From Halotia branconii CENA392 (GTDB lineage Bacteria > Cyanobacteriota > Cyanobacteriia > Cyanobacteriales > Nostocaceae): 32,000 bases of DNA. Under the pieces are notes generated by a model that was not told the origin of the DNA, ran no database searches, and worked only from the letters and a program-made list of their open reading frames with translations. Numbering within the stretch: position 1 is the stretch's first letter; the number at the start of each line of letters is the position of its first letter. The translations under genes were made by a program, and so were the position numbers. Shown here in pieces: positions 9,400-32,000 of the stretch. The stretch is from NCBI RefSeq assembly GCF_029953635.1, contig NZ_CP124543.1, forward strand, positions 5,828,367 to 5,860,366, written 5' to 3'.

Positions 9400-9472
9400 A
9401 GAAACATTACCTCCAACTCTTCACCTAACTTCTGCTTTACCTGTTCATTAAGGAATAAAAAAATAATTAAAA

Positions 9473-19900: not shown

Positions 19901-22900
19901 TGACAGCGTAAACTGCTGGCGAACTCCTGTGAATGTCTGCACAGCAGGTCTTGGTCGGTCAATTGGTAAAGATAATACAGTTGGTGCGTCTTTTAGTTGC
20001 TGTTCCCAATAGGAAAGTTGATTTTGCAGTACATCCCCTTGTAACCAATGTCTTTGCCAAATGGCGAAATCTGCATACTGAATTGGCAATGGTGTTAAAG
20101 GTGACGGCTGACCTTGAGAATAAGCGTTGTATAGTGCTGCTAGTTCTTGGATAAATACACCCATTGACCAACCATCAGAGACAACATGGTGCATAAATAC
20201 TAACAAGATGTGTTCTGTATCATTCAGCACAACTAATGTTGCTCGAATTAACGCCTCAGTTGCTAAATCAAAAGGTTGAATTAGTTGTTTTTGCGCTAAC
20301 TGCTGTGTGGCGATTTCTTGTTCAGTCGCTGGTAAATCCTGGAAATCAACAATAGATAATATTCCCTGCGATGCACTGAGCTTGTCGAAGTGTTCCCTAA
20401 TTACTTGTGTTGGTTGTCCATCGACAGTGATGAAGTTAGTACGTAATGCTTCGTGGCGATGAATAATTTCAGTTAAGCTTTGCTCTAAGGCTGCTTGATT
20501 TAGACTTCCTACTAAACGCAAAGCTGTAGGGATATTGTAAAACGCACTATTCGGTTCTAATTGGTCTAAAAACCACAACCTTTGTTGAGCAAATGAAAGT
20601 GGTAAATCTGCATTCTTCACTCTTGGTAAAATTGGGGGTACAGATATTTCTAAATCTTGTTGCTGTAATTGCTCAATCGTTCGTGCTAATTCGGCTAGGG
20701 TTGTAGTAGCAAATAACTCACGCAATGGTAGTTCTAATTTGAAGCTGGTACGAATGCGTGAAAGCAATTGCGTTGCTAGTAGAGAATGTCCTCCTAATTC
20801 AAAGAAGTTATCATCAATGCTGACTTGTTCTACTTTCAGCACTTGCGACCAAATTTGTGCTAACAGTTCTTCAATTGAGTTGCGTGGAGCGATATATTTT
20901 TTTGTGCTGGTGCTGTATGATTCCGGTGCGGGTAAGGCTTTGCGGTCTATCTTACCGTTAGAGGTTAGAGGTAAAGATTCTAGCTTTACAAAAGCGTTGG
21001 GAATCATGTACTCTGGTAGCTTTGCTTTGAGGTATTGGCGCAGTTCTATAGGGGTGGGAGATTTTTCTTTAGTTACTACGTAAGCAACAAGACGTTTACT
21101 TCGACTTCTCTGCGAGACGCTACGCGAACGCTCAGTACAAGTATCCCCTGGTTCATCTTCGCGCACCAATACCACAGTTTCCCAAATATCAGGATGAGAT
21201 GCTAATAACGCCTCAATTTCTCCCAATTCGATGCGGAAACCACGAATTTTAACTTGATGGTCTATGCGTCCTAAATACTCTAACTCGCCATTAGGTAAAT
21301 AACGCGCTAAGTCTCCAGTTTTATATAGTTTTGAGTTGTGGTTAAAGGGATTAAAAATAAATTTTTGTGCTGTCAGATCAAAACGATTTAAATAACCTGT
21401 TGTCACCCCAGCACCACCGACATACATTTCACCGGGAACGCCTAGAGGGACTGGTTGAAGATATTCATCCAGCACATACACCTGTAAATCGGGTATGGGA
21501 CGACCGATAACGCTGGCTGTACTATGTAAATCGGCTTTACTCAAGGGACGATAGGTAACGTGTACGGTGGTTTCTGTAATTCCGTACATATTCACTAATT
21601 GCGGTTTGCTGTCTCCATGTCGCTCAAACCAAGGTTGTAAACTCTGGATTTCTAAGGCTTCTCCGCCAAATATTACTAGGCGTAAGTTTAATTCGCCTGT
21701 TGTTATTCCTGAGTTTTCGGCTTGAATTAGTTGGCGGAATGCTGAGGGTGTCTGATTGAGAACGGTGACTTTTTCTTGACACAATAACTCATAGAAAGAT
21801 TCTGGAGAACGAGTAATTAAATATGGCACAATTACTAATCTTCCACCGTATAACAAAGCACCCCAAATTTCCCACACAGAGAAATCAAAGGCGTAGGAAT
21901 GGAACATTGTCCACACATCGTCTTGATTGAAGTGATACCAAGCATCTGTAGCAGCAAATAACCGCACGACATTGTAGTGGTTGACTAATGTACCTTTGGG
22001 GTTTCCTGTTGAACCTGATGTGTAGATGATGTAGGCTAAATTTTGCCTTGTGGAGTTACTAACAGGATTTTCCTGACTTGCTCTAGAAATAATCTCCCAA
22101 TCTTTATCTAAGCAGACAACACGGGCATGATGCTCTGGTAAATCAGCTAGCAATTTCTCTTGAGTCAAAAGCACTGAAACTTTTGAATCATCAAGCATAT
22201 ATAATAAGCGATCGCTAGGATAATCTGGGTCAAGTGGCACATAAGCTCCACCTGCTTTAAGTATGCCTAGTAGTCCGACTATCATTTCTAATGAGCGTTC
22301 TACACACAAACCCACTAAAGTATCTGCACTTACACCCAATGTTTTGAGGTGATGTGCTAATTGATTAGCGCGAGTATTTAATTGATGGTATGTCAGTTTT
22401 TGCTGTTCATATACAACTGCTACAGCATCGGGTGTACGTTGAACTTGCTCTTCAAACAATTGATGAATGCATTTATCCGAGGGATAATTCGCTTGAGTAT
22501 CATTCCATTGAGTTAATAACTGTTGTTGTTCAGGCTGTGTTAGCAATGGTAATTGCCAAATCCTCTCTTCTGGATTGCTGACAATTCCTGCTAGCAAAGT
22601 TTGAAAATGTCCAGCCATCCGAGTAATTGTAGCTGGCTCAAATAGGTCAGAATTATACTCTAAACTTGCAGTTAGTCCTTGCTCAGTCTCGGTCATCAGC
22701 AAGGTTAAATCAAACTTAGCTGTCGGATTTTCTATTTCTAGCTGAGTCAGAGATAAACCAGGTAATTCCAATTTTCCCGGAGGTGTATTCAGCAAGACGA
22801 ACATTACCTGAAACAATGGAGAGTAGTTCAGGTTTCTTTCTGGCTGTAAGGCTTCGACTACTTGCTCAAATGGTACATCTTGATGAGAGTATGCTTCTAT

Positions 22901-23989
22901 TGCTACTTGGCGGACTCTTTGCAGTAACTCCCAAAAAGTAGGATTACCAGAAATGTCAGTACGCAACACCAAAATATTAACGAAAAAGCCAATTAAAGAC
23001 TCAATTTCGCTACGGTTGCGGTTAGCGATGGGGGAACCGACAAGAATATCTTGTTGATTGCTGTAGCGCGATAATAAAATGACAAAGCCAGTTAGCAAAG
23101 TCATGAATAAGGTTGCACCTGACTGTTCGCTAAGGCTTTTGAGTTTTTGAGTCAGCTGTTCATCTAGCTGAAAGTGCAGAATACTACCACGATTTGTCTG
23201 CACAGGTGGACGCACTCGGTCAGTGGGAAGTTCTAGCAGGGGAGGCGCGTCTGCTAATTGTCGCTTCCAGTAGTTCAGTTGATTGTCAGTGACTTGACCT
23301 TGCAACCATTTTCTCTGCCAAACTGCAAAGTCTGCATACTGAATGGGTAGTTTAGGTAATGGAGAAGGTTTACCAGCCGCAAAAGCTGTGTACAAAGTTG
23401 TTAGTTCGCGCCAGAAAAGACCTTCAGACCAACCATCAAAAGCAATATGGTGGATACTCAGAAGTAAGACATATTCATTTTCATCTAGCTGCACTAGGGA
23501 ACAGCGTAACGGCGAATTTTGATCTAAATCAAAGGGTTGTTGAACTTTGTTTTTAACTAGTTGTAAAACTTGAGTTTCCCTTTCTTGTTGAGAAAGTTCC
23601 TGAAGATTAATTACAGGTAACTTCAAGTTAAAGCTGGGTGCAATAACTTGAATCGGCTGATTATCCGCAGCGAAAAACCTAGTCCGCAATACTTCATGGC
23701 GTTGGATAATTTCATTAAAGCTATGCTCTAATGCAGAAATATTGAGCAAACCTTGAAGACGAAAAGCAAAGGAGACATTATAAGTAGAGCTATTTGGCTG
23801 CAATTGCTGAATGAACCATAATCTTTCTTGAGAAAAAGACAATGGTAAATGTTCATTCCGAGATACAGGCTGCAAAATTGGCGCTTGATTTTGTAATTCT
23901 AGAATACTGGCGATCGCTTGCCAAATATCTTTTCCTGTTTTAGCTGACTTATTCAGTTCTAATGGGTTGATTTCCGCAGAGTAGCTCAT
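14000..23989 (-). CDS. Trimodular non-ribosomal peptide synthetase C-A(Thr)-T-C-A(Leu)-T-C-A(Phe-like)-T
   Basis: 3329-aa ORF from the track. Domain limits from my residue count are C1 22556-23857 (HHIAFDGWS), A1 20936-22477 and T1 20675-20893. Next are C2 19295-20614, A2 17726-19216 and T2 17465-17683. Last are C3 16085-17404, A3 14393-16006 and T3 14135-14353. Specificity residues, read by aligning to the GrsA-PheA positions, are A1 DFWNIGMVHK (Thr), A2 DAWFLGNVVK (Leu) and A3 DAWTIAAVCK (Phe or a related aromatic). C1 directly follows the ligase and ACP genes, so it is positioned as an N-acylating starter C domain. There is no E or TE domain. Confidence 0.97.
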   Translation of the reverse strand: MSYSAEINPLELNKSAKTGKDIWQAIASILELQNQAPILQPVSRNEHLPLSFSQERLWFIQQLQPNSSTYNVSFAFRLQGLLNISALEHSFNEIIQRHEVLRTRFFAADNQPIQVIAPSFNLKLPVINLQELSQQERETQVLQLVKNKVQQPFDLDQNSPLRCSLVQLDENEYVLLLSIHHIAFDGWSEGLFWRELTTLYTAFAAGKPSPLPKLPIQYADFAVWQRKWLQGQVTDNQLNYWKRQLADAPPLLELPTDRVRPPVQTNRGSILHFQLDEQLTQKLKSLSEQSGATLFMTLLTGFVILLSRYSNQQDILVGSPIANRNRSEIESLIGFFVNILVLRTDISGNPTFWELLQRVRQVAIEAYSHQDVPFEQVVEALQPERNLNYSPLFQVMFVLLNTPPGKLELPGLSLTQLEIENPTAKFDLTLLMTETEQGLTASLEYNSDLFEPATITRMAGHFQTLLAGIVSNPEERIWQLPLLTQPEQQQLLTQWNDTQANYPSDKCIHQLFEEQVQRTPDAVAVVYEQQKLTYHQLNTRANQLAHHLKTLGVSADTLVGLCVERSLEMIVGLLGILKAGGAYVPLDPDYPSDRLLYMLDDSKVSVLLTQEKLLADLPEHHARVVCLDKDWEIISRASQENPVSNSTRQNLAYIIYTSGSTGNPKGTLVNHYNVVRLFAATDAWYHFNQDDVWTMFHSYAFDFSVWEIWGALLYGGRLVIVPYLITRSPESFYELLCQEKVTVLNQTPSAFRQLIQAENSGITTGELNLRLVIFGGEALEIQSLQPWFERHGDSKPQLVNMYGITETTVHVTYRPLSKADLHSTASVIGRPIPDLQVYVLDEYLQPVPLGVPGEMYVGGAGVTTGYLNRFDLTAQKFIFNPFNHNSKLYKTGDLARYLPNGELEYLGRIDHQVKIRGFRIELGEIEALLASHPDIWETVVLVREDEPGDTCTERSRSVSQRSRSKRLVAYVVTKEKSPTPIELRQYLKAKLPEYMIPNAFVKLESLPLTSNGKIDRKALPAPESYSTSTKKYIAPRNSIEELLAQIWSQVLKVEQVSIDDNFFELGGHSLLATQLLSRIRTSFKLELPLRELFATTTLAELARTIEQLQQQDLEISVPPILPRVKNADLPLSFAQQRLWFLDQLEPNSAFYNIPTALRLVGSLNQAALEQSLTEIIHRHEALRTNFITVDGQPTQVIREHFDKLSASQGILSIVDFQDLPATEQEIATQQLAQKQLIQPFDLATEALIRATLVVLNDTEHILLVFMHHVVSDGWSMGVFIQELAALYNAYSQGQPSPLTPLPIQYADFAIWQRHWLQGDVLQNQLSYWEQQLKDAPTVLSLPIDRPRPAVQTFTGVRQQFTLSVELTEKLVKLSQEQGCTLFMTLLAAYDTLLYRYTGQSDILVGTPIANRDRSEIEGLIGFFVNTLVMRSNLAGNPSFSELLNRVREMAMQAYTHQHLPFEMLVEALQPERNLAHTPLFQVMFVLENVPMSPVELTGLSFHPLVVETTIAKFDLTLLMENTTQGLVGWWEYNTDLFDASTIDRMTGHFVTLLEGIVANPETQISQLPLLTEVEQQQLLVEWNNTQAHYPLDKCVHQLFEEQVERTPDAVAVVFGNQKLTYQQLNIRANQLAHYLRSLGVKPDTLVGICVERSLEMLVGILGIIKAGGAYVPLDPNYPTERLHFMVADAQLSFLLTQEKLVNQLPDYQTKLICLDTYWQEISPLNQDNPINEVQANNLAYVIYTSGSTGQPKGVLVTHQSLLNLIFWHQCNFEITPLDKATQLAGTAFDAAVWELWPYLTTGASIYVVTSETLLSPIDLQNWLTSNKITISFLPTPFAEKLLSLEWDENVALRTMLVGGDKLHNYPSAFIPFTVVNNYGPTENTVVTTSGLVISNAQDTIASPPIGRPIANTKTYILDSNLQPLPIGVPGELYIGGASLAQGYLNRPELTQERFIPNPFNNSKLYKTGDLARYLPDGNIEYLGRIDNQVKIRGFRIELGEIEAALSQHIDIQACCVICREDNLRETCTELSRSKRLVAYLVVNQDSTPTISELRQYLKAKLPDYMVPSAFILLEYLPLTPNGKIDRKALPALELYSSNLDKYVAPRNPIEELLVQIWSQVLKIDQVGINDNFFELGGHSLLGTQLVSRIRSIFKVELPLRELFATATLAELAQVIDKLQQQKIEICEPPIVPRTEKTHVPLSFAQQRLWFLDQLEPNSALYNIPVALCLQGNLAQVALEKSLQEIINRHEALRTNFITVDGQPTQVIREHFDKLSASQGIESVVELQHLSTAETENAVQEIAQQEAITPFNLADEALIRVTLVVLSQTEHILLVCMHHAVSDGWSMGVFIQELAALYNAYTQNKPSPLAPLPIQYADFAIWQRNWLQGNVLQNQLSYWEQQLKDAPALLALPTDRPRPAVQTFVGAHHEFTLSVALTDKLLKLSQEQGCTLFMMLLAAYDTLLYRYTGQSDILVGTPIANRDRSELEGLIGFFVNTLVMRSNLAGNPSFNELLTRVRETAMEAYTHQNLPFEMLVEALQPERDLGHTPLFQVVFMLQNAPLQELELAGLTVSTLPVETKTAKVDLALSMENTTQGLLGVWEYNTDLFDASTIERMTGHFVTLLEGIVANSEAQISQLPMLTAVEQHQLLVEWNDTQADYPLDKCVHQLFEEQVQRIPNAVAVVFENQQLTYHQLNYRANGLAHYLRSLGVKPDVLVGICVERSLEMVIGLLGILKAGGAYLPLDPDYPQERLRFMLEDAQVSVLLTQQWLLERLPDYQANKVCLDDVWDKIAQNNQDNPTSEVRAFNLANLIYTSGSTGRPKGVMVEHKGLCNLAQAQIQTFGLTSDSRVLQFASFSFDASIWEIIMALGSGGTLYLGTKDSLLPGKPLVKQLRKHDITHVTLPPSALAVMPSDELPTLQTIIVAGEACSPELIKQWSVGRNFFNAYGPTEASVCATIAQCTYEDEKITIGKAIANTQIYILDEYLQPVPVGVPGELHIDGVGLARGYLNRPELTQEKFISNPFQALLNEGIKIKNLISQTHNLCVSAPLRETKTIPISKATFNSPKLYKTGDLARYLPDGTIEYLGRIDHQVKIRGFRIELGEIEAALSQHNDVQICCVIPREETGGNTCTERLALSEVERSRSKRLIAYVGTQKNVTLTTGELRQFLADKLPGYMLPSAFVILESLPLTPNGKVDRHALPKPDLHQELSDYVMPNTEIENIIAGIWQQALAIEKVGIYHNFFELGGHSLLLVRINQHLQEKFGVELSIVDMFNYPTIHSFSQHLINKINQEETTKQNHNRTQAYSELKPLKNQRLQSRQQYRSQRKR
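14555..14602. repeat. Small dispersed repeat, composite 48 nt, in frame in the A3 A8-A9 loop
   Basis: It has the same ends as the 24-nt form with a different 24-nt interior (cctttcgacttcgctcaaggcaagcc). It encodes TCTERLALSEVERSRS before KRLIAY. Confidence 0.8.
14801..14917. repeat. 117-nt in-frame insertion in the A3 A6-A7 loop containing a tandem octamer GCAGAGNC
   Basis: The protein reads NPF-QALLNEGIKIKNLISQTHNLCVSAPLRETKTIPISKATF-NSPKLYKTGD, whereas modules 1 and 2 read NPFN(H)NSKLYKTGD. The core 14839-14860 is GCAGAGGC GCAGAGAC GCAGAG. Confidence 0.7.
17153..17185. repeat. Repeat-like segment in C3 encoding EHFDKLSASQG
   Basis: It matches the sequence at 20363-20395 with one mismatch (gtcAaag) and sits at the homologous codon position. 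Confidence 0.55.
17891..17914. repeat. Small dispersed repeat, 24-nt basic form, in frame in the A2 A8-A9 loop
   Basis: ACTTCGACTTAGCTCAGTACAAGT encodes TCTELSRS immediately before KRLVAY. It has imperfect terminal inverted repeats, ACTTCGACT and AGTACAAGT. Confidence 0.8.
20363..20395. repeat. Repeat-like segment in C2 encoding EHFDKLSASQG
   Basis: The plus strand reads TCCCTGCGATGCACTGAGCTTGTCGAAGTGTTC. Its reverse complement carries the same TTCGAC-NN-GCTCAG core as the 24-nt A-domain element, but in the opposite orientation relative to the coding strand. The starter C domain and C4 lack it. Confidence 0.55.
21098..21142. repeat. Small dispersed repeat, composite 45 nt, in frame in the A1 A8-A9 loop
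   Basis: The plus strand reads ACTTCGACTT-ctctgcgagacgctacgcgaacG-CTCAGTACAAGT and encodes TCTERSRSVSQRSRS between REDEPGD and KRLVAYVV. The ends are the same as in the 24-nt copies at 17891 and 6310. Confidence 0.8.
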
Positions 23990-24050: not shown

Positions 24051-24302
24051 TCAGCCTTGCTTGGCATTTATTAACTGCACAATCATTTCTATACTTTGGA
24101 AATTTTCTGCATTAATATCATTAACTGCAAATCTAATACCAAAATTACTCTGTAATTTTAAAACTAGTGTCATAGCATTAACAGAATCTAGACCCAGGCT
24201 AAAGAGATTACTAGATTCTGTTAAATCTTCTCTATTAATATTTGGCAATATATTTAAAACTATATTTTTAGTTTTTTCTGTAATTAAATCAATAGTTTTC
24301 AT
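24051..24302 (-). CDS. Stand-alone acyl carrier protein
   Basis: 83-aa ORF with the phosphopantetheine-site motif LGLDSVNAM (Ser40, nt 24183-24185). Its ATG overlaps the ligase stop codon in an ATGA arrangement (24299-24302). It lies 61 nt upstream of the NRPS start. Confidence 0.85.
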   Translation of the reverse strand: MKTIDLITEKTKNIVLNILPNINREDLTESSNLFSLGLDSVNAMTLVLKLQSNFGIRFAVNDINAENFQSIEMIVQLINAKQG

Positions 24303-25837
24303 GATGTTATTTTATCAGATAAATTATCAATTAAGTTCTTTCTTAAAACCTTACCAAGTGGACTTTTAGGTATTTCATTGCGAAATTCGATAACTTTCGG
24401 TACTTTAAAATCAGCTAACTTGTCTTTGCAGTAAGATACAATCTCTTTCTCATCACAAATATCTTGGTTTTGAGTAACAATAACTGCTTTGATAATTTCT
24501 CCTGCATAAGAGCCTTTGATCCCAACCACTACAGCTTCCTTAACCTGATTGTGGGTTATCAATATTTTTTCGATTTCTAGCGGATCGACTTTATGTCCGC
24601 CTGTATCAATAAAGATTTGTTTTCTACCAGTAATATAAACCCGTCCCAATTCATCTTTTATGCCTAAATCACCAGTGAAAAATCTACCATTTTGAAATAC
24701 CTGTTGATTGAGTTTTGGTTGATTACAATATCCTTTTGTTAATGCTGGACTTTTGATAACTATCTCGCCAGTAGTACCAATTGGTAATTCTTTCCCCGCA
24801 TCATCAATAATTTTAATCTCAATGTTTTTTAAAGGTTCGCCTACAGAATTATAAGTGCTGGTTAAATCAGCATCGAGATTAATAGCAATAGAACCTGCTT
24901 CTGTACAGCCATAAAGTTGTCGCACCGGAATATCAAATCTTTGCAGGAATTTATCAAAAATCTCTTTTGCTAAAAAGTTACCCGCAGAAAAGCATAATTT
25001 CAGGGATGAGATATCAACTTGCGTATCATTTGGTGTTTCTGCGAGAGTGTTAAAAATATAGGGAACAGCAGGTAAAATAGTAATTTGCTCTTTTTCTATT
25101 AGTTCTAATACTCGTGCGCGTCTAAATACAAACGGTACTTCAATGGCTTTGCCTTGATTAGTAACTTGCTCTAAAACTGCCAAAGTCGCACCATTACTTA
25201 AAGCAGCTAATAAGCAATTACCTAATCCATGTGCGTGATACAGTGGCACTAAACATAAAATGTTATCTGCGGATGAGATATTAGTGGTTTGAGTAAAGTT
25301 GATGACTTCGTGATATAAATTATTTTGGCTTCTACATACTCTTTTTGGTCTACCCGTAGAACCAGAAGAATATTGATAAAGCACATCACCGCTAAAATTA
25401 GAGGCGCTTTCTGGAATTATTGAGTTATTTACTGGATAACTCAGTTTCATGTCATCAATAACAATTAATTCTATTTTTTTATCTAATTTAGAGATAATTT
25501 TACGACTAATATCTGCGCCATCACTATTGGTGATTATGGCACGAGCTTTGCTATCAATGATGTAGTAACTGAGTTCTTCTTCTTTGAGCAAAGGGTTGAT
25601 TGGCAAAGCTATAGCATTTATTTTCGCAATGGCATAAAAGGCGATCGCAAACTCTGGAATGTTGGGTAAAACTAAGGCTATACAATCACCTTGGGTAATA
25701 CCAGTCTTGCTTAAGTAGTGACTTAAATGTTGAATTTTAGCATACAGTTCTTGATAGCTAATCTTGACGTTATCGTAAGCGATCGCTGTTTTATTAGGGT
25801 AGCTTTTAACAACTTCTAAAAGTCTTTTTTTTAACAT
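24299..25837 (-). CDS. AMP-dependent acyl ligase (fatty acyl-AMP/acyl-ACP ligase type), probable starter-unit loader
   Basis: Adenylate-forming motifs are present: YSSGSTGRPKRV, YHAHGLGN, LYGCTEAG, FFTGDLG, GRKQIFIDTGGHKV and PKSPLGKVLRK. The track ORF starts at GTG 25867. I prefer ATG 25837 (MLKKRLLEVV...) because GAGG lies 5 nt upstream of it. Function is inferred from the ligase-ACP-C-domain gene order. Confidence 0.9.
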   Translation of the reverse strand: MLKKRLLEVVKSYPNKTAIAYDNVKISYQELYAKIQHLSHYLSKTGITQGDCIALVLPNIPEFAIAFYAIAKINAIALPINPLLKEEELSYYIIDSKARAIITNSDGADISRKIISKLDKKIELIVIDDMKLSYPVNNSIIPESASNFSGDVLYQYSSGSTGRPKRVCRSQNNLYHEVINFTQTTNISSADNILCLVPLYHAHGLGNCLLAALSNGATLAVLEQVTNQGKAIEVPFVFRRARVLELIEKEQITILPAVPYIFNTLAETPNDTQVDISSLKLCFSAGNFLAKEIFDKFLQRFDIPVRQLYGCTEAGSIAINLDADLTSTYNSVGEPLKNIEIKIIDDAGKELPIGTTGEIVIKSPALTKGYCNQPKLNQQVFQNGRFFTGDLGIKDELGRVYITGRKQIFIDTGGHKVDPLEIEKILITHNQVKEAVVVGIKGSYAGEIIKAVIVTQNQDICDEKEIVSYCKDKLADFKVPKVIEFRNEIPKSPLGKVLRKNLIDNLSDKITS

Positions 25838-25874
25838 CACTGCCTCAATATTTAAAAATGATCGCACTCAAAAT

Positions 25875-25896
25875 AATTCATGAATCATCATGAATT
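25875..25896. promoter_or_regulatory. Perfect 9-bp inverted repeat AATTCATGA-N4-TCATGAATT upstream of the ligase start
   Basis: The arms are 25875-25883 and 25888-25896, 38-59 nt upstream of ATG 25837. It could be an operator or a 5' UTR hairpin. Confidence 0.35.
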
Positions 25897-26049
25897 ATGA
25901 GATTTATACACGAGAGTTTTATAATATAAATTAAATTATTTTGGTTTTAATTTTTGTTGACTTATGGATTATCTCAGCTTTATCTATAGAACGCAATACT
26001 AGTAACAATGTAATATTTGGAATTGAAAATAGTTAGTTATGAAATTTAA

Positions 26050-26109
26050 GACACTTAAGGCAATGAAGTAGACACTTAAGATAATTAAGGAGACAGTTAA
26101 GACAGTTAA
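26050..26109 (-). promoter_or_regulatory. Array of four GACA(C/G)TTAA(G) motifs (TTAACTGTC on the minus strand) in the divergent intergenic region
   Basis: GACACTTAAG occurs at 26050-26059 and 26071-26080. GACAGTTAA occurs at 26092-26100 and 26101-26109. The array lies 213-272 nt upstream of the ligase ATG, and read in the direction of that operon the motif is TTAACTGTC. Confidence 0.5.
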
Positions 26110-26599
26110 CTAGATAATTAAAATATTTATATAACTTTTTTAAAACATTAGATGAAAATTAATTATTAACTCTAATTACCTTGCATATAGAAATATAATT
26201 AGACTTACAATAAGCTTTTATTACGCTCTAATCTCTCAGATAGTTTTAGCAGTTAAAACTGAGGTACTTCCACCCACAGATCAACTAAATAATTGTCTAA
26301 CTCAAAAATTTTCATTGCCTTTTCAGCAAATACCTGACAAAAATTTCATCGTATAGCGCCAGAGCTATGTTTTGATTTGAGAGTAGCTATTATAGTTAAT
26401 TTATTCGTTCTAGTTATGTAATAACCCCAAGAAAGTTTGTAAAAATTGTAATTAAAAATACATTAGTTAGCTACTTTCTTCCGTAAGGTTAGTCTCGCAG
26501 CTAGTTCTCTGTCTCGCATAAATTTAACCTTGCTTTGACGAACAAATTTATTACTTTACATTCCCGTGCTTTAACTGAATAATTGGAGATAAAAATTTC

Positions 26600-28561
26600 G
26601 TGGTAAATCAAATAGTTGAGCAATCAGTTTTAACATTTAATGGTCAAAAGGATTATATAGATTTTGGCAGAAATGATGTTGGTGGCGTTTTCGCTGAGGG
26701 AAGTTCGGCTTTTACCATTTCAGGATGGGTTAATCCTCATCAATTAACAAATCAAGCCACTACATACGGAACACGCAATGTATTTTTTGCGCGTTCTTCC
26801 GATCGATACAGCGATAATTTTGAATTTGGTATTAGTGAAGCAGGTAATTTAGATATTTACATTGATGAGACTGTTAGTAAATATGTCAAAACATTTGGTA
26901 ATCGAGAATTAACTATAGGACAATGGCACTTTTTTGCCATCATTTTCAATCAAGGCCAAGTAACTGTATATCTTGATGGTCATGAATACGGTGAATCTTT
27001 TACGGGTACTTCTTTAAATAAAGCAACAAGTTCTGTAACTTTGGGAGCGACTTTACATAATCACATATATTTTACAGGTCAATTAGCTCACATTAGCATC
27101 TGGAATTATCCTTGTACCCAAGAACAAATACAGAATCAACGTTCTGGGTTAATAGTCGGTGATGAACCAGGATTAATAGCTTACTGGAAATTAGATGAAG
27201 GCGAAGGAAAAACCGTCAAAAGCCAAACTAGTAACTCTTATCAAGGGACTGTGCGTGGTAATCCAAGTTGGGATTTAACACAAATTCCATTTGTAGAACA
27301 ATCATCTAATGAAGGTGAAATTATCAGTGAAACTGCAACTAATTTTCAGGAAGATGTCGCATTTTTAACGACGACAACTGTATTAGCTAACGAAGAATCC
27401 GAGACTATCCCCAAAGAGGAAACTAAAACAGACCAAACTAAAGTTCCTATTAATACCCAATTAGCACAAACATTAATTCAGGAGGAATCCTCAGAAACTA
27501 TGAACAATACATCTCAACCTAAATATAAAATACTGGCGATTGATGGAGGTGGTATTAGAGGTATTATTCCTGCACTCCTCTTAGCAGAAATTGAAAGACG
27601 GACACAAAAGCCTATATCTAGTTTATTTGATTTAATTGCGGGTACTTCTAGTGGCGGAATTTTGGCGTTGGGATTAACTAAACCCCGATTAAATACAGAG
27701 GTTTCTGATAATTTATCACCCGCTGAATATACAGCTGAGGATCTCTTCCAACTATTTCTTGAGTATGGCGCAGAAATATTCTATGAACCACTGTTTGAAA
27801 AAATACTTGGCCCCCTGGAAGATTTCTTTTTACCAAAATATTCTTCTGAGAGTCGAGAAGAAATTTTAAAACAATATTTTGGTAATAGCCCTCTAGAAAA
27901 TAATCTTAAAGAAGTTTTTGTCACTAGTTACGATATAGAACACCGCATTCCGATATTGTTTACTAACAAATCAGCAAAGCAAAATATTGAATCCAAAAAT
28001 TTCCGCAATTTTTGTGGAGGTTTTTCACTTTTAGATGCAGCCTTAGCCACCAGTGCTACTCCCACTTATTTTGCTCCCCATCGTATTGTCAATGCCCACA
28101 ATAATGATAGCGTATATACTTTAATTGATGGTGGAGTTATTGCTAATAATCCAGCACATTTGGCTATTTTAGAAGCACAAATTAGTAATAGACAACAAGC
28201 AAATAGAGTTATCAATACAGAAGATATTGTAATAGTTTCTTTAGGTACAGGTTCGCTCACAAGTGCATTTCATTACAGCAAAGTTAAAAATTGGGGACTT
28301 TTACAATGGGGAAGACCACTTTTAAATATTGTGTTTGATGGCGGTAGTGAAGTGGTAGCTGGAGAATTAGAACGCTTGTTTGCACCTAATAATGAAGAAA
28401 AAAGTTCTTATTATCGGTTTCAAACATTCTTAGATGGGGATTTAGAAGAATTAGATAATACTAAATTAAATAATACCCGTCAGTTACAAGCTACAGCCCA
28501 TCGGATGATTGCTGAAAATGGTCAAAAAATCGATGAGTTGTGTAGTGTTTTGTTAAGCTAA
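26600..28561 (+). CDS. LamG/concanavalin-like domain fused to a patatin-like phospholipase
   Basis: 653-aa ORF with a GTG start; GGAGA lies 10 nt upstream and an in-frame TGA sits at 26576. The N-terminus (~aa 10-225, nt 26627-27274) has LamG-like jelly-roll hallmarks: FTISGWVNP, WHFFAIIFNQGQVTVYLDG, AHISIWNY and LIAYWKLDEGEG. A Thr/Glu/Ser-rich linker covers ~27288-27523. The patatin domain (~27524-28459) carries DGGGIRG (27542-27562), GTSSG (27641-27655, Ser350) and DGG (28127-28135, Asp510). I see no signal peptide or TM segment. Confidence 0.85.
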   Translation: MVNQIVEQSVLTFNGQKDYIDFGRNDVGGVFAEGSSAFTISGWVNPHQLTNQATTYGTRNVFFARSSDRYSDNFEFGISEAGNLDIYIDETVSKYVKTFGNRELTIGQWHFFAIIFNQGQVTVYLDGHEYGESFTGTSLNKATSSVTLGATLHNHIYFTGQLAHISIWNYPCTQEQIQNQRSGLIVGDEPGLIAYWKLDEGEGKTVKSQTSNSYQGTVRGNPSWDLTQIPFVEQSSNEGEIISETATNFQEDVAFLTTTTVLANEESETIPKEETKTDQTKVPINTQLAQTLIQEESSETMNNTSQPKYKILAIDGGGIRGIIPALLLAEIERRTQKPISSLFDLIAGTSSGGILALGLTKPRLNTEVSDNLSPAEYTAEDLFQLFLEYGAEIFYEPLFEKILGPLEDFFLPKYSSESREEILKQYFGNSPLENNLKEVFVTSYDIEHRIPILFTNKSAKQNIESKNFRNFCGGFSLLDAALATSATPTYFAPHRIVNAHNNDSVYTLIDGGVIANNPAHLAILEAQISNRQQANRVINTEDIVIVSLGTGSLTSAFHYSKVKNWGLLQWGRPLLNIVFDGGSEVVAGELERLFAPNNEEKSSYYRFQTFLDGDLEELDNTKLNNTRQLQATAHRMIAENGQKIDELCSVLLS

Positions 28562-28650
28562 ATCCAATTTATTAAATTTAAGGGAGGGTAAGATGCTCAA
28601 TCCATAAAACTTTAATTAAAGTTAAAATTTGCAAAGAATATGTGTTTGAG

Positions 28651-28691
28651 CTTATCTGTCTCAATTGATTTGCTTAACTGTCTTATCTGTC
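28651..28691 (+). promoter_or_regulatory. Three CTTA(A/T)CTGTC motifs downstream of the patatin gene
   Basis: CTTATCTGTC is at 28651-28660, CTTAACTGTC at 28673-28682 and TTATCTGTC at 28683-28691. Confidence 0.4.
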
Positions 28692-28980
28692 CTTGTATGT
28701 TGGCCAAACTAATAAGAAAATATATGACTGTAAAAAGTGCCACAACACACTTCAAGATTCAGGTATTAGCTATTAAAGTAAAAATCAATGGATCTTGATA
28801 ATATAGCTCAGATTTCCAAACGAGCGAGATTTATAAATCATTCAATTACATTAGTTTCAACAGCCTATTTTCTGTTGTAATGTCACTGCGATCGCGTATG
28901 CATTGACTGCATTGGGATATTGTGGATGAGATTTTCTACATCACCCAGCTACCGATCGCATCGGTTTTAAATTATGGCAA

Positions 28981-29017
28981 TAACTGTCTTAACTGTCTTC
29001 TTAACTGTCTTAACTGC
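28981..29017 (+). promoter_or_regulatory. Array of four TTAACTGTC-type motifs next to a candidate promoter of the FAAL-KR gene
   Basis: TAACTGTC is at 28981-28988, TTAACTGTC at 28989-28997 and 29001-29009, and TTAACTGC at 29010-29017. The array ends 12 nt before a TTGACA hexamer and lies 136-172 nt upstream of ATG 29153. Confidence 0.5.
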
Positions 29018-29029
29018 TATTGCATTTTA

Positions 29030-29057
29030 TTGACAAAACTAAGATTATTTATCTAAT
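29030..29057 (+). promoter_or_regulatory. Candidate sigma70-type promoter (TTGACA, 16-nt spacer, TCTAAT)
   Basis: TTGACA is at 29030-29035 and TCTAAT at 29052-29057, which matches TATAAT at 5 of 6 positions. The elements lie ~95 nt upstream of the start codon. This rests on sequence match only. Confidence 0.35.
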
Positions 29058-29152
29058 GGATAATTGTAGACAAATAACAAATTATATTTATATTTTTTAA
29101 TTAAAATTAATTGAAGATTATTAACATTGGAGAACTAAGGATGTAAAACCTA

Positions 29153-32000
29153 ATGCAATTAGATAATCATAAACAGGTTTTAAAAGTTTTAAATAATAAA
29201 ATTTTTACATACGAAGAAATAGAATTTGCTATTAGGTCGAGTTTGACTGTAGATGATTGTGTAGTATTAAATAGGCAAACAAAAAATTTAAAATGTGAGT
29301 TAATAGCTTATGTAGTTCCATTAGGCTTGTTTGCTATTGAACAATTGTTGTCTCACTTGCAAAAAGTTTTACCTAGCGAATTGATACCCGTAGCATTTAT
29401 ACCAGTTTCAAGTATACCTATTACTGATACAGTACAGTTAGATGAAGCAACTTTAGTTAGCTTAGAAGTTATTGATACTGATTTAATAACTCGCCTAGAA
29501 AAACAATTGTACTTGTTGCCAGAAATTGATAGTTTTGCAGTAGTTACTGAACCAGTGGTTATAAAGATTCCTCCTGTGCATTTGGAGGATTTACTGGACG
29601 ATCATCAAGTATTCACAAATGAAAATAGCCAGCAAAATTTATCATCAATCAAACCTATTCAAAATATAGAAAACCAGAATTTATCCTATATCAACAAACT
29701 AGCCATTAGCCACGGAGAACCGCTACAATATTCCCCCGATGCTCCTAAAACTTTAGCAAAATTACTCGAAAAAACCGCTAAAAATACAAATAAAGGTATC
29801 ATATATATTCAACATCATGACAGTGAGAAAATTCAGTCTTATCAAGAATTATGGCAGGATGCCCAACGAATTTTAGCTGGCTTGAGAAAGTTAGGACTCA
29901 AACCACAAGATAAAATAATTTTTCAACTAGAAGACAATCAAGATTTCCTATGTGCGTTTTGGGGTTGCGTGATTGGTGGCTTTGTTCCCGTTGCCATATC
30001 TGTAGCTAAAACCTACGAACAACTTAACACTATTACCAGCAAACTTCAGAATACTTGGCAGATATTGGGGAAACCCCTGGTACTAACTAGCGATCTTTTA
30101 GCACCCAAAATTGCTAATTTAGCAACGTTGTTAAATTTAGAAAACTTGCAACTAGCGACTATCGAACAGTTGTATGAGTGCGAAGCGGATGAAAACTTGC
30201 ATCAGAGTCAACCAGAAGATTTAGCGATTTTGTTTTTAACTTCTGGCAGTACTGGTATACCCAAGTGTGTGATGTTGAATCATCACAACTTGTTGAGTAT
30301 GACAAATGGCTTTGTAGTCATGGGTAATTTTTCCCATCAAGACAGTGTTTTAAACTGGATGCCTTTGGATCATGTTGGCGCGCTAGTCTCTCTCAGCATT
30401 TTGGCTGTTAATTTGGGTTGCCAACAAATTCATGTGCCTACTAATTTGATTGTAGAGAATCCCCTCAAGTGGTTAGATTTGATTGATAATCATCAAGCTA
30501 CAATTAGTTGGACACCTAATTTTGCCTTTTCTTTAATCTGCGATCGCGCCAGTGAAATTCAGCAAAAGCACTGGAATTTATCGTCGATGCGTTTTATCAT
30601 CAACGCTGGCGAACCCATTGTTACTAAAGTAGCTAGAAGTTTTTTAAAGTTGCTTCGTCCATACAGTTTACCAACCACCGCGATTCATCCAGCCTTTGGG
30701 ATGTGCGAAACTGGTTCTGGTATTACCTACTCTAATAGTTTTTCTCTCGAATCTACATCAGATGACGTTTCATTTGTCGAATTGGGTTTGCCAATTGCGG
30801 CTGCTTCAGTGCGGATTGTTGACGAACATGAACAAATAGTGACAGAAGGCACTATTGGACGATTACAAGTAAAAGGTGCATCTGTTACTACTGGTTACTA
30901 TCAAAATCCCCAAGCGAACCAAGAAGCTTTTACCGTTGATGGTTGGTTTAATACAGGTGATTTAGGATTTTTGCAAGAAGGGCGTTTAACTATTACGGGA
31001 AGAATCAAAGATGTCATTATTATTAATGGCTTAAACTACTATTGCCATGAAATCGAAGCTGCTATTGAGGAACTAGAAGCCGTAGAAGTTTCATATACAG
31101 CCGCTTGTGCAGTCAGACAACCAGGAAGCAATACCGATAAATTAGCGATATTTTTCCATACTTCTGTTAGTGGCGATCGCATCATAAATCTCCTCAAAGA
31201 AATTCGCGCCAAAGTTGTTAACAAAGTAGGCGTAAACCCAGATTATTTAATTCCCGTAGATAAAGAAATTATTCCGAAAACTGCCATTGGAAAAATTCAG
31301 CGATCGCAACTCAGCCAACGGTTTAAAAATAGTGAATTTCAATCAATTATTAAACAGATTGATATCTTGTTTGGTAACACCAATACTACTATTCCTGACT
31401 GGTTCTATAAAAAAGTCTGGCGACAAAAGCCAGCCAATATTTTGCAACCCTTACCTCAAGATGGTCTGACTGTAGTATTCCTCGACAAGCTAGGATTAGG
31501 TGAATTTATTTGTCAGCAATTACAACAGCAAAACCTACCATATACTTGTGTTTCACCCGGTTACGATTTTACTCAAATCAGTCATCATCACTTTTTTTTA
31601 AACCCTGGTAACGCTGAACATTATCAAAGATTTTTTAAAGCAATAACATCAACCAAACTAAAAATTAGCCAGATTATCCATTTCTGGAATTATCAAGAAT
31701 ATAGCGGAGAAATTAATAATCTAGCAGCTTTAGAAAAAGCTCAAGAGTACGGAATTTATAGTTTATTATTTATTGTTCAAGCCTTAGAAAAAGTTCGGAA
31801 TGAACAACATTTCATTCAATTACTGTTTGTTTCTAACTATACGCAGTCTACGCAACTCACAGACAAAATAGCTTATGAAAAATCTCCTGTTCTCGGTGTC
31901 CTAAAAACTATTCCCCACGAAATCTCCTGGTTAAATTGTCGCCACATCGATTTGCAACTAAATTTAATTGAGGTCAACGGCAATCATATTCTACAAGAAC
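29153..32000 (+). CDS. Hybrid loading protein, C-terminal part beyond the window edge: degenerate A-subdomain-like N-terminus, FAAL-type adenylation domain, start of a PKS KR region
   Basis: The frame is open from ATG 29153, the first start after an in-frame TAA at 29144, to the window end; it is not in the track because it is truncated. aa ~20-105 resemble the A8-A10 part of an A domain (ELIAYVVP...LPSELIPVAFIPVSSIPIT) but lack the A10 Lys. The FAAL-like core (~29696-31358) has LTSGSTGIPKCV, NWMPLDHVGAL, FGMCETGSG, GWFNTGDLGF and GRIKDVIIINGLNYYCHEIE. From ~31394, PDWFYKKVWRQKP...TVVFLDKLGLGEFICQQL...IIHFWNY...SLLFIVQAL matches the pattern that precedes and begins PKS KR structural subdomains. 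Confidence 0.85.
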   Translation, partial: MQLDNHKQVLKVLNNKIFTYEEIEFAIRSSLTVDDCVVLNRQTKNLKCELIAYVVPLGLFAIEQLLSHLQKVLPSELIPVAFIPVSSIPITDTVQLDEATLVSLEVIDTDLITRLEKQLYLLPEIDSFAVVTEPVVIKIPPVHLEDLLDDHQVFTNENSQQNLSSIKPIQNIENQNLSYINKLAISHGEPLQYSPDAPKTLAKLLEKTAKNTNKGIIYIQHHDSEKIQSYQELWQDAQRILAGLRKLGLKPQDKIIFQLEDNQDFLCAFWGCVIGGFVPVAISVAKTYEQLNTITSKLQNTWQILGKPLVLTSDLLAPKIANLATLLNLENLQLATIEQLYECEADENLHQSQPEDLAILFLTSGSTGIPKCVMLNHHNLLSMTNGFVVMGNFSHQDSVLNWMPLDHVGALVSLSILAVNLGCQQIHVPTNLIVENPLKWLDLIDNHQATISWTPNFAFSLICDRASEIQQKHWNLSSMRFIINAGEPIVTKVARSFLKLLRPYSLPTTAIHPAFGMCETGSGITYSNSFSLESTSDDVSFVELGLPIAAASVRIVDEHEQIVTEGTIGRLQVKGASVTTGYYQNPQANQEAFTVDGWFNTGDLGFLQEGRLTITGRIKDVIIINGLNYYCHEIEAAIEELEAVEVSYTAACAVRQPGSNTDKLAIFFHTSVSGDRIINLLKEIRAKVVNKVGVNPDYLIPVDKEIIPKTAIGKIQRSQLSQRFKNSEFQSIIKQIDILFGNTNTTIPDWFYKKVWRQKPANILQPLPQDGLTVVFLDKLGLGEFICQQLQQQNLPYTCVSPGYDFTQISHHHFFLNPGNAEHYQRFFKAITSTKLKISQIIHFWNYQEYSGEINNLAALEKAQEYGIYSLLFIVQALEKVRNEQHFIQLLFVSNYTQSTQLTDKIAYEKSPVLGVLKTIPHEISWLNCRHIDLQLNLIEVNGNHILQE

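Follow-up and report, generated by a model that had tools for sequence, protein, structure and literature searches.

Patatin-type lipid hydrolases have been described in several contexts that bear on a gene of the cyanobacterium Halotia branconii CENA392, which encodes a protein combining an N-terminal LamG domain with a C-terminal patatin domain (hereafter the lipase) and lies in a 32,000-nucleotide stretch of contig NZ_CP124543.1 (positions 5,828,367–5,860,366), referred to throughout as the window. The closest described counterpart is Npun_F2191 of Nostoc punctiforme, which a literature text search found named in one paper only, as a putative (glyco)lipid lipase encoded in the microviridin operon Npun_F2189–F2193 (PMC7660261). 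In that study, Npun_F2191 and the adjacent Npun_F2192, which encodes the small protein that we term p134, were co-induced ~6-fold in a strain that overproduces alkanes; lipid droplets disappeared when Npun_F2189–92 was present on a multicopy plasmid, whereas F2189 alone merely reduced them, and the authors credited the loss to microviridin (PMC7660261). The text search found no paper naming both "microviridin" and "patatin". Two further patatins offer points of comparison: potato Pat17 (PDB 1oxw), a non-specific lipid acyl hydrolase, and CapV (PDB 8zr9, 9kh7), the cGAMP-activated effector of the antiphage systems that signal through cyclic oligonucleotides (CBASS)—a cytoplasmic patatin that stays closed until activated by opening of its occluded pocket and then attacks the phospholipids of the cell's own membrane; in AbCapV, F147, K149, D159, E207 and R279 contact cGAMP (PMC12480259). 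On the microviridin side, MdnE has been suggested to scaffold the machinery at the membrane, an export role never having been demonstrated (PMC7823629), and the leader peptidase NosP, encoded outside the cluster, was identified in 2026 (PMC13039773). A role for the lipase as the missing leader protease was rejected on that ground, the protease being NosP, an M1 peptidase.

The window protein is identical (100%, full length) to an H. branconii database entry annotated as "patatin-like phospholipase family protein" (P0001). Pfam searches recovered Laminin_G_3 (PF13385) at aa 15–178 with 77.5 bits (cut-off 27.6) and Patatin (PF01734) at aa 312–523 with 79.2 bits (cut-off 27.7), the latter across profile positions 1–191 of 191. 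The catalytic motifs GGGIRG (316–321), GTSSG (348–352, with Ser350) and DGG (510–512, with Asp510) occur exactly where a preliminary description of this DNA, made from the sequence alone, had placed them, and GGGxRG, GTSSG and DGG are invariant across the 30 homologs compared. By profile and by all three motifs, the protein is thus assigned to the patatin/PNPLA family. Its N-terminal part had been likened to a LamG-type jelly roll, which modeling bears out: the AlphaFold2 model of aa 1–235 is an all-beta sandwich (predicted local distance difference test score, pLDDT, 71; predicted template modeling score 0.79) with loops below pLDDT 50 at 53–58, 141–143, 153–156 and 200–213, and a Foldseek search with this model returned the LamG-like domain of PAPP-A as top match (E 6e-10, TM 0.65–0.70), together with pentraxins, neurexin LNS domains and laminin G5. 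With both profile and modeled fold in agreement, the protein belongs to the Laminin_G_3 family. The two halves are joined by the ~80-aa Thr/Glu/Ser-rich linker noted earlier (aa 226–308; 18% T, 16% E, 10% Q, 8% S). Neither a signal peptide, whose absence had also been remarked on, nor a transmembrane helix was detected in the lipase: its N-terminus is hydrophilic (mean Kyte–Doolittle −0.42), no 19-residue hydropathy window exceeds 1.7, and a modeled beta-strand begins at residue 3. The gene has a G+C content of 35%, against 38.7% for the window.

Compared with solved structures, the catalytic half matches potato patatin best (1oxw; E 3e-27, aa 310–629), followed by CapV proteins (~1e-22 to 1e-20), and similarity to 1oxw suggests that it adopts the patatin alpha/beta fold. 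Pat17 shares the GGGxRG, GxSxG and DG[A/G] motifs and the Ser–Asp dyad but is a single-domain vacuolar storage protein lacking the LamG domain, the linker and any biosynthetic-cluster context. CapV likewise shares the catalytic motifs, and the PADLOC profile of the CBASS phospholipase effector (PDLC00758) spans almost the whole catalytic domain (2.5e-62, profile positions 3–316 of 331). However, the window protein scores 169.9 bits with the NCBIfam model CBASS_lipase (NF041079), under the equivalog cut-off of 200, has no CD-NTase partner, is twice as long and carries the extra N-terminal LamG domain; it is not a CapV equivalog. Overall, these features identify an intact, predicted hydrolase with a Ser350/Asp510 dyad and a LamG domain, and without an export signal.

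The preliminary description had not recognized this domain pairing as one already described. The pairing is not novel: at least 1,353 database proteins match the lipase at E <= 1e-5, and all of the 120 matches listed, nearly all from Nostocales and including proteins of N. punctiforme PCC 73102 and Trichormus variabilis ATCC 29413, carry PF13385 and PF01734. An exhaustive search of 50%-identity representatives for more distant homologs added full-length clusters at ~42% identity from a Crocosphaera metagenome-assembled genome (MAG; 884 aa, two LamG domains), Aphanizomenon gracile (639 aa), Nostoc linckia FACHB-104 (813 aa) and Calothrix FACHB-156 (957 aa). The same representatives included many stand-alone patatins of 320–360 aa, 40–50% identical to the catalytic half, and giant multi-LamG proteins ~27% identical to the N-terminal half. 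The LamG–patatin fusion is therefore an ordinary member of an annotated, widespread and experimentally uncharacterized family, in which Npun_F2191 had already been described (PMC7660261).

To place the gene in context, we analyzed its homologs' neighborhoods in 23 genomes, namely 15 loci from a genome scan, loci fetched around seven homologs (including N. punctiforme and a 1-Mb Nostoc plasmid; the Nostoc UHCC 0926 plasmid was analyzed by tblastn) and the window itself. In 19 of the 23, the homolog lies within 10 kb of microviridin genes, that is, the ATP-grasp maturases MvdC and MvdD and precursor genes. These loci carry one to six small precursor genes with a PFFARFL leader and a TxKYPSDWEE-type core, and the MvdC of L006 scores 518 bits against an NCBIfam equivalog cut-off of 425. 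The usual gene order is precursors, MvdC, MvdD, LamG–patatin, p134, an ABCD-type (MdnE-like) ABC transporter, in some loci a GNAT, a protein with a GUN4 domain and one of ~136 aa. Departures from it include lipase, p134, grasp, grasp in Pelatocladus (L011); p117, lipase, precursors, two grasp genes, p130, ABC transporter and GNAT in Crocosphaera (L023; 44% identity); and, in a grasp-end set comprising Aliinostoc (L002), Nostoc CMAA1605 (L005) and Nostoc CENA543 (L028), one precursor, one MvdD, ABC transporter, GUN4, p140 and lipase. Since linkage is kept through at least four gene orders and across cyanobacterial orders, functional coupling explains it better than inherited synteny alone. In heterocystous cyanobacteria and in one Crocosphaera MAG, the lipase gene is a conserved part of microviridin (graspetide) clusters. 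As a separate observation, the single ligase of the grasp-end clusters is of MvdD type and the precursor (L002:3868-4023, L028:3735-3890) has the leader PFFTRFL and the core TLKWPSDWE; marinostatin-like peptides are reported to result when the lactam-forming ligase is lost (PMC7823629).

The remaining four loci fall into two groups. Two belong to a ~40%-identity subclade (A. gracile and N. linckia) residing, with a p134 homolog, within clusters of fatty acyl-AMP ligase (FAAL)–acyl carrier protein (ACP), P450, polyketide synthase (PKS) and nonribosomal peptide synthetase (NRPS) genes; in A. gracile an ABC transporter gene also adjoins the lipase. The other two, the window and Okeanomitos corallinicola, are orphans with no grasp genes near, each facing an NRPS operon divergently. 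The Okeanomitos gene (L029:10001-11992) is intact, lies opposite an anabaenopeptin-like NRPS cluster (PhyH, Iso_dh, aconitase, p141, NRPS) with no grasp genes within 10 kb, and shares its downstream AAA_35 neighbor with the grasp-end loci. FAAL or FAAL–ACP genes occur within 10 kb of the homolog in L014, L019, L025 and the window, and most microviridin-type loci lack them; fatty acids are not used in microviridin biosynthesis, and the microviridin-type clusters contain no acyl-activating enzyme. The family is tied to peptide biosynthetic clusters, in or beside which all 23 loci lie and whose products share no chemistry. For the preliminary description, which had asked whether homologs are scattered and had linked the gene to the two acyl-activating operons flanking it, the outcome is divided: the homologs are not scattered, but the conserved partners in the clade of the window protein are microviridin genes, and the window protein itself nests among the microviridin-type proteins.

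This placement comes from neighbor-joining trees, in which the window protein falls within the Nostocales clade of microviridin type, and 62 of 100 bootstraps join it to the grasp-end set and Okeanomitos. Its identity to Npun_F2191 is 70% by BLASTP and 75% over aligned columns, with 100% coverage; both proteins have the LamG_3 plus patatin architecture and belong to the same clade, and by sequence comparison the window protein is the full-length ortholog of Npun_F2191. Their settings differ. Npun_F2191 is encoded between MvdD and the 134-aa Npun_F2192, followed by an MdnE-like ABC transporter, in a microviridin cluster that comes directly after the nostopeptolide cluster, whereas in the window copy the linker is shorter (653 versus 698 aa for the proteins), and precursors, grasp ligases, p134 and ABC transporter are missing from the window. 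Searching the 32-kb window with tblastn at E <= 10 recovered no remnants of ATP-grasp, p134, ABC, GUN4, p136 or GNAT genes, and no precursor motif of the PFF[AE]RF/KYPSD type occurs anywhere in it.

Two breakpoints bound the window copy. Upstream of the start codon, homology to the grasp-end loci is limited to a conserved 36-bp leader. Downstream, positions 28651–28977 are 72% identical to the region just past the microviridin cluster of Nostoc FACHB-110, where an intact phytochelatin-synthase-like gene of 221 codons (L008:17537-18199) corresponds to a frameshifted stub in the window; homology ends at 28978, right before another 9-mer array and the FAAL gene. The leader and the stub define the rearrangement breakpoints, the stub being the downstream one, and the juxtaposition of lipase and FAAL gene is accordingly a secondary rearrangement scar. 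Related megasynthases also flank microviridin clusters elsewhere: part of the second NRPS of the window is matched at 89% identity by an NRPS beside the cluster of Calothrix anomala, a FAAL-PKS beside that of Nostoc P14264 is 50–64% identical to the window FAAL gene, and the arrangement in N. punctiforme was described above. The region thus behaves as a shuffled island of biosynthetic clusters, and a rearrangement of this island, to judge from these comparisons, parted the lipase gene of Halotia from its graspetide partners. The best 120 of 1,777 MvdD homologs (all at >=70% identity) include none from Halotia, which is no more than suggestive but favors a loss of the Halotia graspetide genes. 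The lipase gene is not decaying. It retains all family-invariant residues, and its ratio of nonsynonymous to synonymous substitution rates (dN/dS) against four relatives is 0.19–0.22, compared with 0.18–0.26 for cluster-embedded pairs, rough values given a dS of 0.8–1.0, near saturation; this indicates continuing purifying selection.

A usual companion of the lipase is p134, a ~117–141-aa Gly-rich membrane protein family with the N-terminus MDE[IL]VKKLxGLGLPG..., which no Pfam or NCBIfam model matches and for which 242 homologs in two size classes were detected. Its members occur in microviridin, FAAL/NRPS and anabaenopeptin-like clusters. The sole Halotia member detected (130 aa) lies elsewhere, in an anabaenopeptin-like NRPS cluster in which Iso_dh and aconitase-type homo-amino-acid genes precede an NRPS of A-T-C-A-T-C layout, an arrangement found likewise in one Nostoc genome; a similar anabaenopeptin-like arrangement with p134 is found near the Okeanomitos orphan lipase. 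With paralogs in anabaenopeptin-like clusters that have no LamG–patatin gene nearby, p134 was rejected as an exclusive partner of the lipase; it is a small membrane protein general to the peptide clusters of cyanobacteria. A gene for a dynamin-like GTPase (Dynamin_N plus Dynamin-like_hel_bact, 526 bits), of the bacterial membrane-remodeling type, adjoins the LamG–patatin gene in both FAAL/NRPS loci at different positions. The LamG module also appears without the lipase: P0194 (L021:2266-3078), encoded beside a PatG-type protease in a Crocosphaera cyanobactin cluster, fuses LamG_3 to a PatC/TenC/TruC domain (TIGR04447, 53 bits). Its LamG part is 46% identical to aa 8–232 of the window protein and it, too, sits inside a ribosomal-peptide cluster, but a 34-residue PatC/TenC/TruC domain replaces the linker and patatin. 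The module consequently recurs in three classes of peptide cluster.

The flanks of the lipase gene are as the preliminary description had them, with a ligase–ACP–NRPS operon on one side and a FAAL-led gene on the other (Table 1), except that the lipase gene is not the sole non-megasynthase open reading frame in the window, the ligase and the ACP being further ones. The minus-strand operon is nostopeptolide-like (ligase–ACP–NRPS–PKS–NRPS) and its start faces the divergent lipase gene. On the other side, 591 bp with the decayed stub inside and a rearrangement breakpoint separate the lipase and FAAL genes, and co-transcription of the two is not supported. The FAAL-led gene is itself of unusual make-up, with no full ketosynthase (KS) or acyltransferase (AT) called, and a 1864-aa homolog adjoins the microviridin cluster of Nostoc P14264 (L014) divergently. 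An Rfam scan of 25800–29400 at E <= 1 gave no match, and promoter-like matches barely exceed shuffled expectation (24 versus 17.8 ± 4.4). A hairpin at 28951–28965 was rejected as a terminator, as it lies inside the stub and matches the coding sequence of the intact homolog.

Tandem 9-mer arrays are a further common element. In most related loci, TTAACTGTC arrays of 3–8 copies stand just upstream of the first microviridin precursor gene, with seven perfect copies each in L006 and L015, and the arrays at 26073–26123 and 28980–29009 in the window combine into an inverted repeat (51 nt, 80%) with the lipase gene between its arms. These arrays could be a shared regulator-binding array of the cluster island or a repeat of STRR (short tandemly repeated repetitive) type.

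Table 1. Positions of the features discussed, in window coordinates unless a locus number precedes them
Feature	Position	Strand	Remarks
LamG–linker–patatin coding sequence	26600..28561	+	653 aa, GTG start, stop codon included; Halotia ortholog of Npun_F2191
LamG/pentraxin-like jelly-roll domain, aa 1-232	26600..27295	+	Pfam, AlphaFold2 model, Foldseek
Thr/Glu/Gln/Ser-rich linker, aa 226-308	27275..27523	+	residue composition; length differs among orthologs (640-760 aa proteins)
Patatin-type catalytic domain, aa 309-653	27524..28558	+	Pfam, NCBIfam, PADLOC, 1oxw match, motifs
GGGIRG codons	27545-27562	+	within patatin domain
Ser350 codon	27647-27649	+	within patatin domain
Asp510 codon	28127-28129	+	within patatin domain
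Conserved 5' leader	26561..26595	+	GGAG at 26585-26588; 86% identical upstream of ortholog in Aliinostoc (L002) and Nostoc CMAA1605 (L005)
Frameshifted phytochelatin-synthase-like (PF05023) stub	28788..28978	+	codons 1-65 of 221, split over three frames, stops
Tandem (TTAACTGTC)-type 9-mer array, divergent intergenic region	26050..26109	-	towards ligase/NRPS operon
TTAACTGTC-type 9-mer array before stub	28652..28691	+	homologous to array before intact gene in L008
9-mer array upstream of FAAL gene	28980..29009	+	
TTAACTGTC arrays in related loci	L001:7269, L003:6670, L004:7384, L006:5738, L008:7954 and 17389, L015:4156, L017:7265, L014:6424 (-), L011:2730 (-)		
FAAL-led gene	29153..32000 (L016:6586-10794)	+	1402 aa in full, exceeds window; AMP-binding, DIP2-like AMP domain, Beta-ketacyl_N, ketoreductase (KR), ACP
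Stand-alone AMP-binding ligase	24299..25867	-	database gene call starts 25837 (512 aa)
Stand-alone ACP	24051..24302	-	83 aa
NRPS	14000-23989	-	3329 aa, three condensation–adenylation–thiolation (C-A-T) modules
PKS	9732-13997	-	KS-AT-C-methyltransferase (cMT)-ACP
Second NRPS	1-9420	-	TubC docking domain; runs past left window end
p134-family genes	L017:12226-12630, L019:9341-9745, L023:9602-9955 and 15824-16216, L025:8779-9159		
p134-family genes	L029:4273-4698 (-), L030:3139-3531, L032:6407-6799 and 10001-10393		
Dynamin-like GTPase genes	L019:21021-21920 and L025:5763-7889 (-)		

We favor a picture in which the window gene is an orphan of a microviridin cluster and encodes a lipid acyl hydrolase that serves as a generic accessory. 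That this picture as a whole is right we consider somewhat probable, being very confident of the identity and evolutionary history of the gene and much less so of its physiological role. The lipase would be a cytoplasmic or membrane-peripheral hydrolase of membrane or droplet lipids; by analogy with plant patatin and CapV, its likely substrates would be galactolipids and phospholipids, and possibly the neutral lipids of droplets. The LamG domain probably serves in targeting or regulation, attached through a disordered linker. [quoted passage not shown] At the membrane, the lipase may act together with the small membrane protein and the ABC transporter in assembly, remodeling or peptide release.

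The lipid droplets of N. punctiforme may be a further substrate pool. In eukaryotes, the canonical lipases of lipid droplets (ATGL, SDP1, Tgl3–5) are patatin-domain proteins. The plasmid that abolished droplets carries a patatin-type lipase and p134 along with the microviridin genes, which would make the lipase an obvious alternative cause, and the lipase, with its membrane-protein neighbor, seems a more direct candidate for droplet loss than microviridin.

Several observations weigh against our reading. The proposed role in release or membrane remodeling rests on gene context, and lipid acyl hydrolysis by the family is a prediction from motifs and profiles. The AlphaFold2 model of aa 301–653, built on a 30-sequence alignment, reaches a pLDDT of 35, and the pocket is not readable from it. 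No lipid-droplet phenotype is reported for Npun_F2191 alone on a plasmid (PMC7660261). Microviridin has been reconstituted with the ATP-grasp ligases (plus GNAT) alone (PMC13039773), which, together with the location of NosP elsewhere, implies that the lipase is dispensable for the core chemistry. In the grasp-end group, which contains the closest relatives, no p134 gene lies within 10 kb, so that the partnership of lipase and p134 is not obligate. Finally, the window alone fits either a deletion of the graspetide genes or their shift by more than 26 kb through an inversion.

A bolder extension of the same idea would make LamG–patatin, p134 and the ABCD-type ABC transporter an unrecognized, portable "release module" shared by chemically unrelated clusters (microviridin, FAAL-primed lipopeptide and, in part, anabaenopeptin and cyanobactin). 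LamG-controlled local hydrolysis of membrane or droplet lipids would free stored peptides and would be the true cause of the droplet loss seen with Npun_F2189–92. In colicin release, a small lysis protein switches on OMPLA, a phospholipase of the outer membrane, the envelope is permeabilized and the product is released. The likeness, namely that genes for a phospholipase and a small membrane protein accompany those of a peptide or protein weapon, is one of functional analogy only: there is no sequence or fold relation, OMPLA being a beta-barrel and the colicin lysis protein a lipoprotein. We regard this extension as speculative and doubtful.

Among other explanations, the one suggested by the flanks is that the lipase frees fatty acids from membrane or droplet lipids for the FAAL and/or the ligase, which in Halotia would be a co-opted role. 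Patatin-type enzymes do release free fatty acids, and FAALs need them; the gene sits between a ligase–ACP operon and a FAAL gene; the ~40%-identity subclade inhabits FAAL–ACP/P450/PKS/NRPS clusters of two genera; and both orphan copies, the window gene under purifying selection without its microviridin context and the retained Okeanomitos copy, lie beside NRPS operons. We nevertheless think this supply role unlikely. The 19 microviridin clusters have no acyl-activating enzyme for the lipase to feed, the window protein falls in their clade, and its adjacency to the FAAL gene was made by a rearrangement that left a stub between the two. The arrays on either side of that stub, if regulatory, would place lipase and FAAL under separate control, and the cluster neighboring the Okeanomitos copy is anabaenopeptin-like, with no FAAL within 10 kb.

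The substrate could instead be the peptide, the protein acting as an esterase that opens or edits the omega-ester (lactone) rings of microviridins or depsipeptides in turnover, maturation or self-protection. Microviridins have two side-chain ester bonds, nostopeptolide-type products are also depsipeptides, and microviridins C and H are ring-opened forms. Ring-opened congeners such as microviridin F occur naturally (PMC7823629). The lipase gene usually comes right after those for the lactone- and lactam-forming ligases, and Nostoc minutum NIES-26, the producer of microviridins G and H (PMC7823629), carries the fusion (P0009). What makes this quite improbable in our estimate is that the catalytic domain matches CapV-type phospholipase profiles end to end, and potato patatin as well, and that the gene persists where graspetide genes are absent. 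To our knowledge, every characterized patatin-fold enzyme hydrolyzes lipid acyl esters. Moreover, ring-opened microviridins are also made by Microcystis and Planktothrix, and no lipase of this kind is listed for their five-gene clusters as published (PMC7823629).

The profile matches could also be read as those of a defense gene, the lipase being a membrane-destroying suicide effector like CapV, inactive until its LamG domain senses a phage, damage or grazer cue, and resident in peptide clusters by chance or for lytic release of the peptide. The strongest profile matches are indeed CBASS phospholipase effectors, the stand-alone 320–360-aa patatins are 40–50% identical to the catalytic domain, and a fused sensor might gate the enzyme much as opening of the occluded pocket gates CapV (PMC12480259). 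Yet the CBASS_lipase score stays below the equivalog cut-off, no CD-NTase or other CBASS gene occurs in the window or in the Pfam-annotated homologous loci, and the two closest stand-alone cyanobacterial patatins examined likewise have no CBASS partners. The tight, order-independent linkage to biosynthetic genes is also unlike that of a free-standing defense gene, and we consider this alternative distinctly unlikely.

Two explanations fare worse still. That the gene merely survived a deletion of the microviridin genes and has no present role in Halotia would agree with the lack of all usual partners in the window, the decay of the neighboring gene to a stub and the missing Halotia entry among the 120 best MvdD homologs, but we hold it to be very unlikely in view of an intact reading frame with every family-invariant residue, a dN/dS (~0.2) the same as that of cluster-embedded orthologs, the preserved leader and ribosome-binding site, and a second orphan copy, in Okeanomitos, that is also intact. 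A secreted or delivered phospholipase toxin, its LamG domain binding target-cell surfaces and working beside a protease inhibitor or lipopeptide against grazers or competitors, is highly improbable: the LamG fold does resemble modules with which toxins and adhesins bind receptors (the Foldseek matches include BoNT/NTNH binding domains and a phage tailspike), an ABC transporter is a near-constant neighbor and the peptides made by the host clusters themselves act against grazers or fungi, but the protein has no signal peptide, neither an RTX nor a type I secretion (T1SS)-type C-terminal signal was seen in it, no HlyD/TolC-type partner occurs in the loci examined, and the transporter is of the MdnE/NosG type associated with the peptide product.

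For genome mining, the favored reading of an orphaned microviridin-cluster accessory carries a caution, in that the position of this gene between two acyl-activating operons reflects a rearrangement and not a designed pathway step. At the level of the family, cyanobacterial peptide clusters conserve genes for a lipase and a small membrane protein that have drawn almost no comment. The two travel with peptide clusters through several gene orders and peptide classes, which makes them a lead for the release step; as the release of microviridin-type peptides from cyanobacteria is still poorly understood, lipase and p134 would offer a concrete, testable lead, and they may also provide one for the loss of lipid droplets in N. 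punctiforme carrying Npun_F2189–92.

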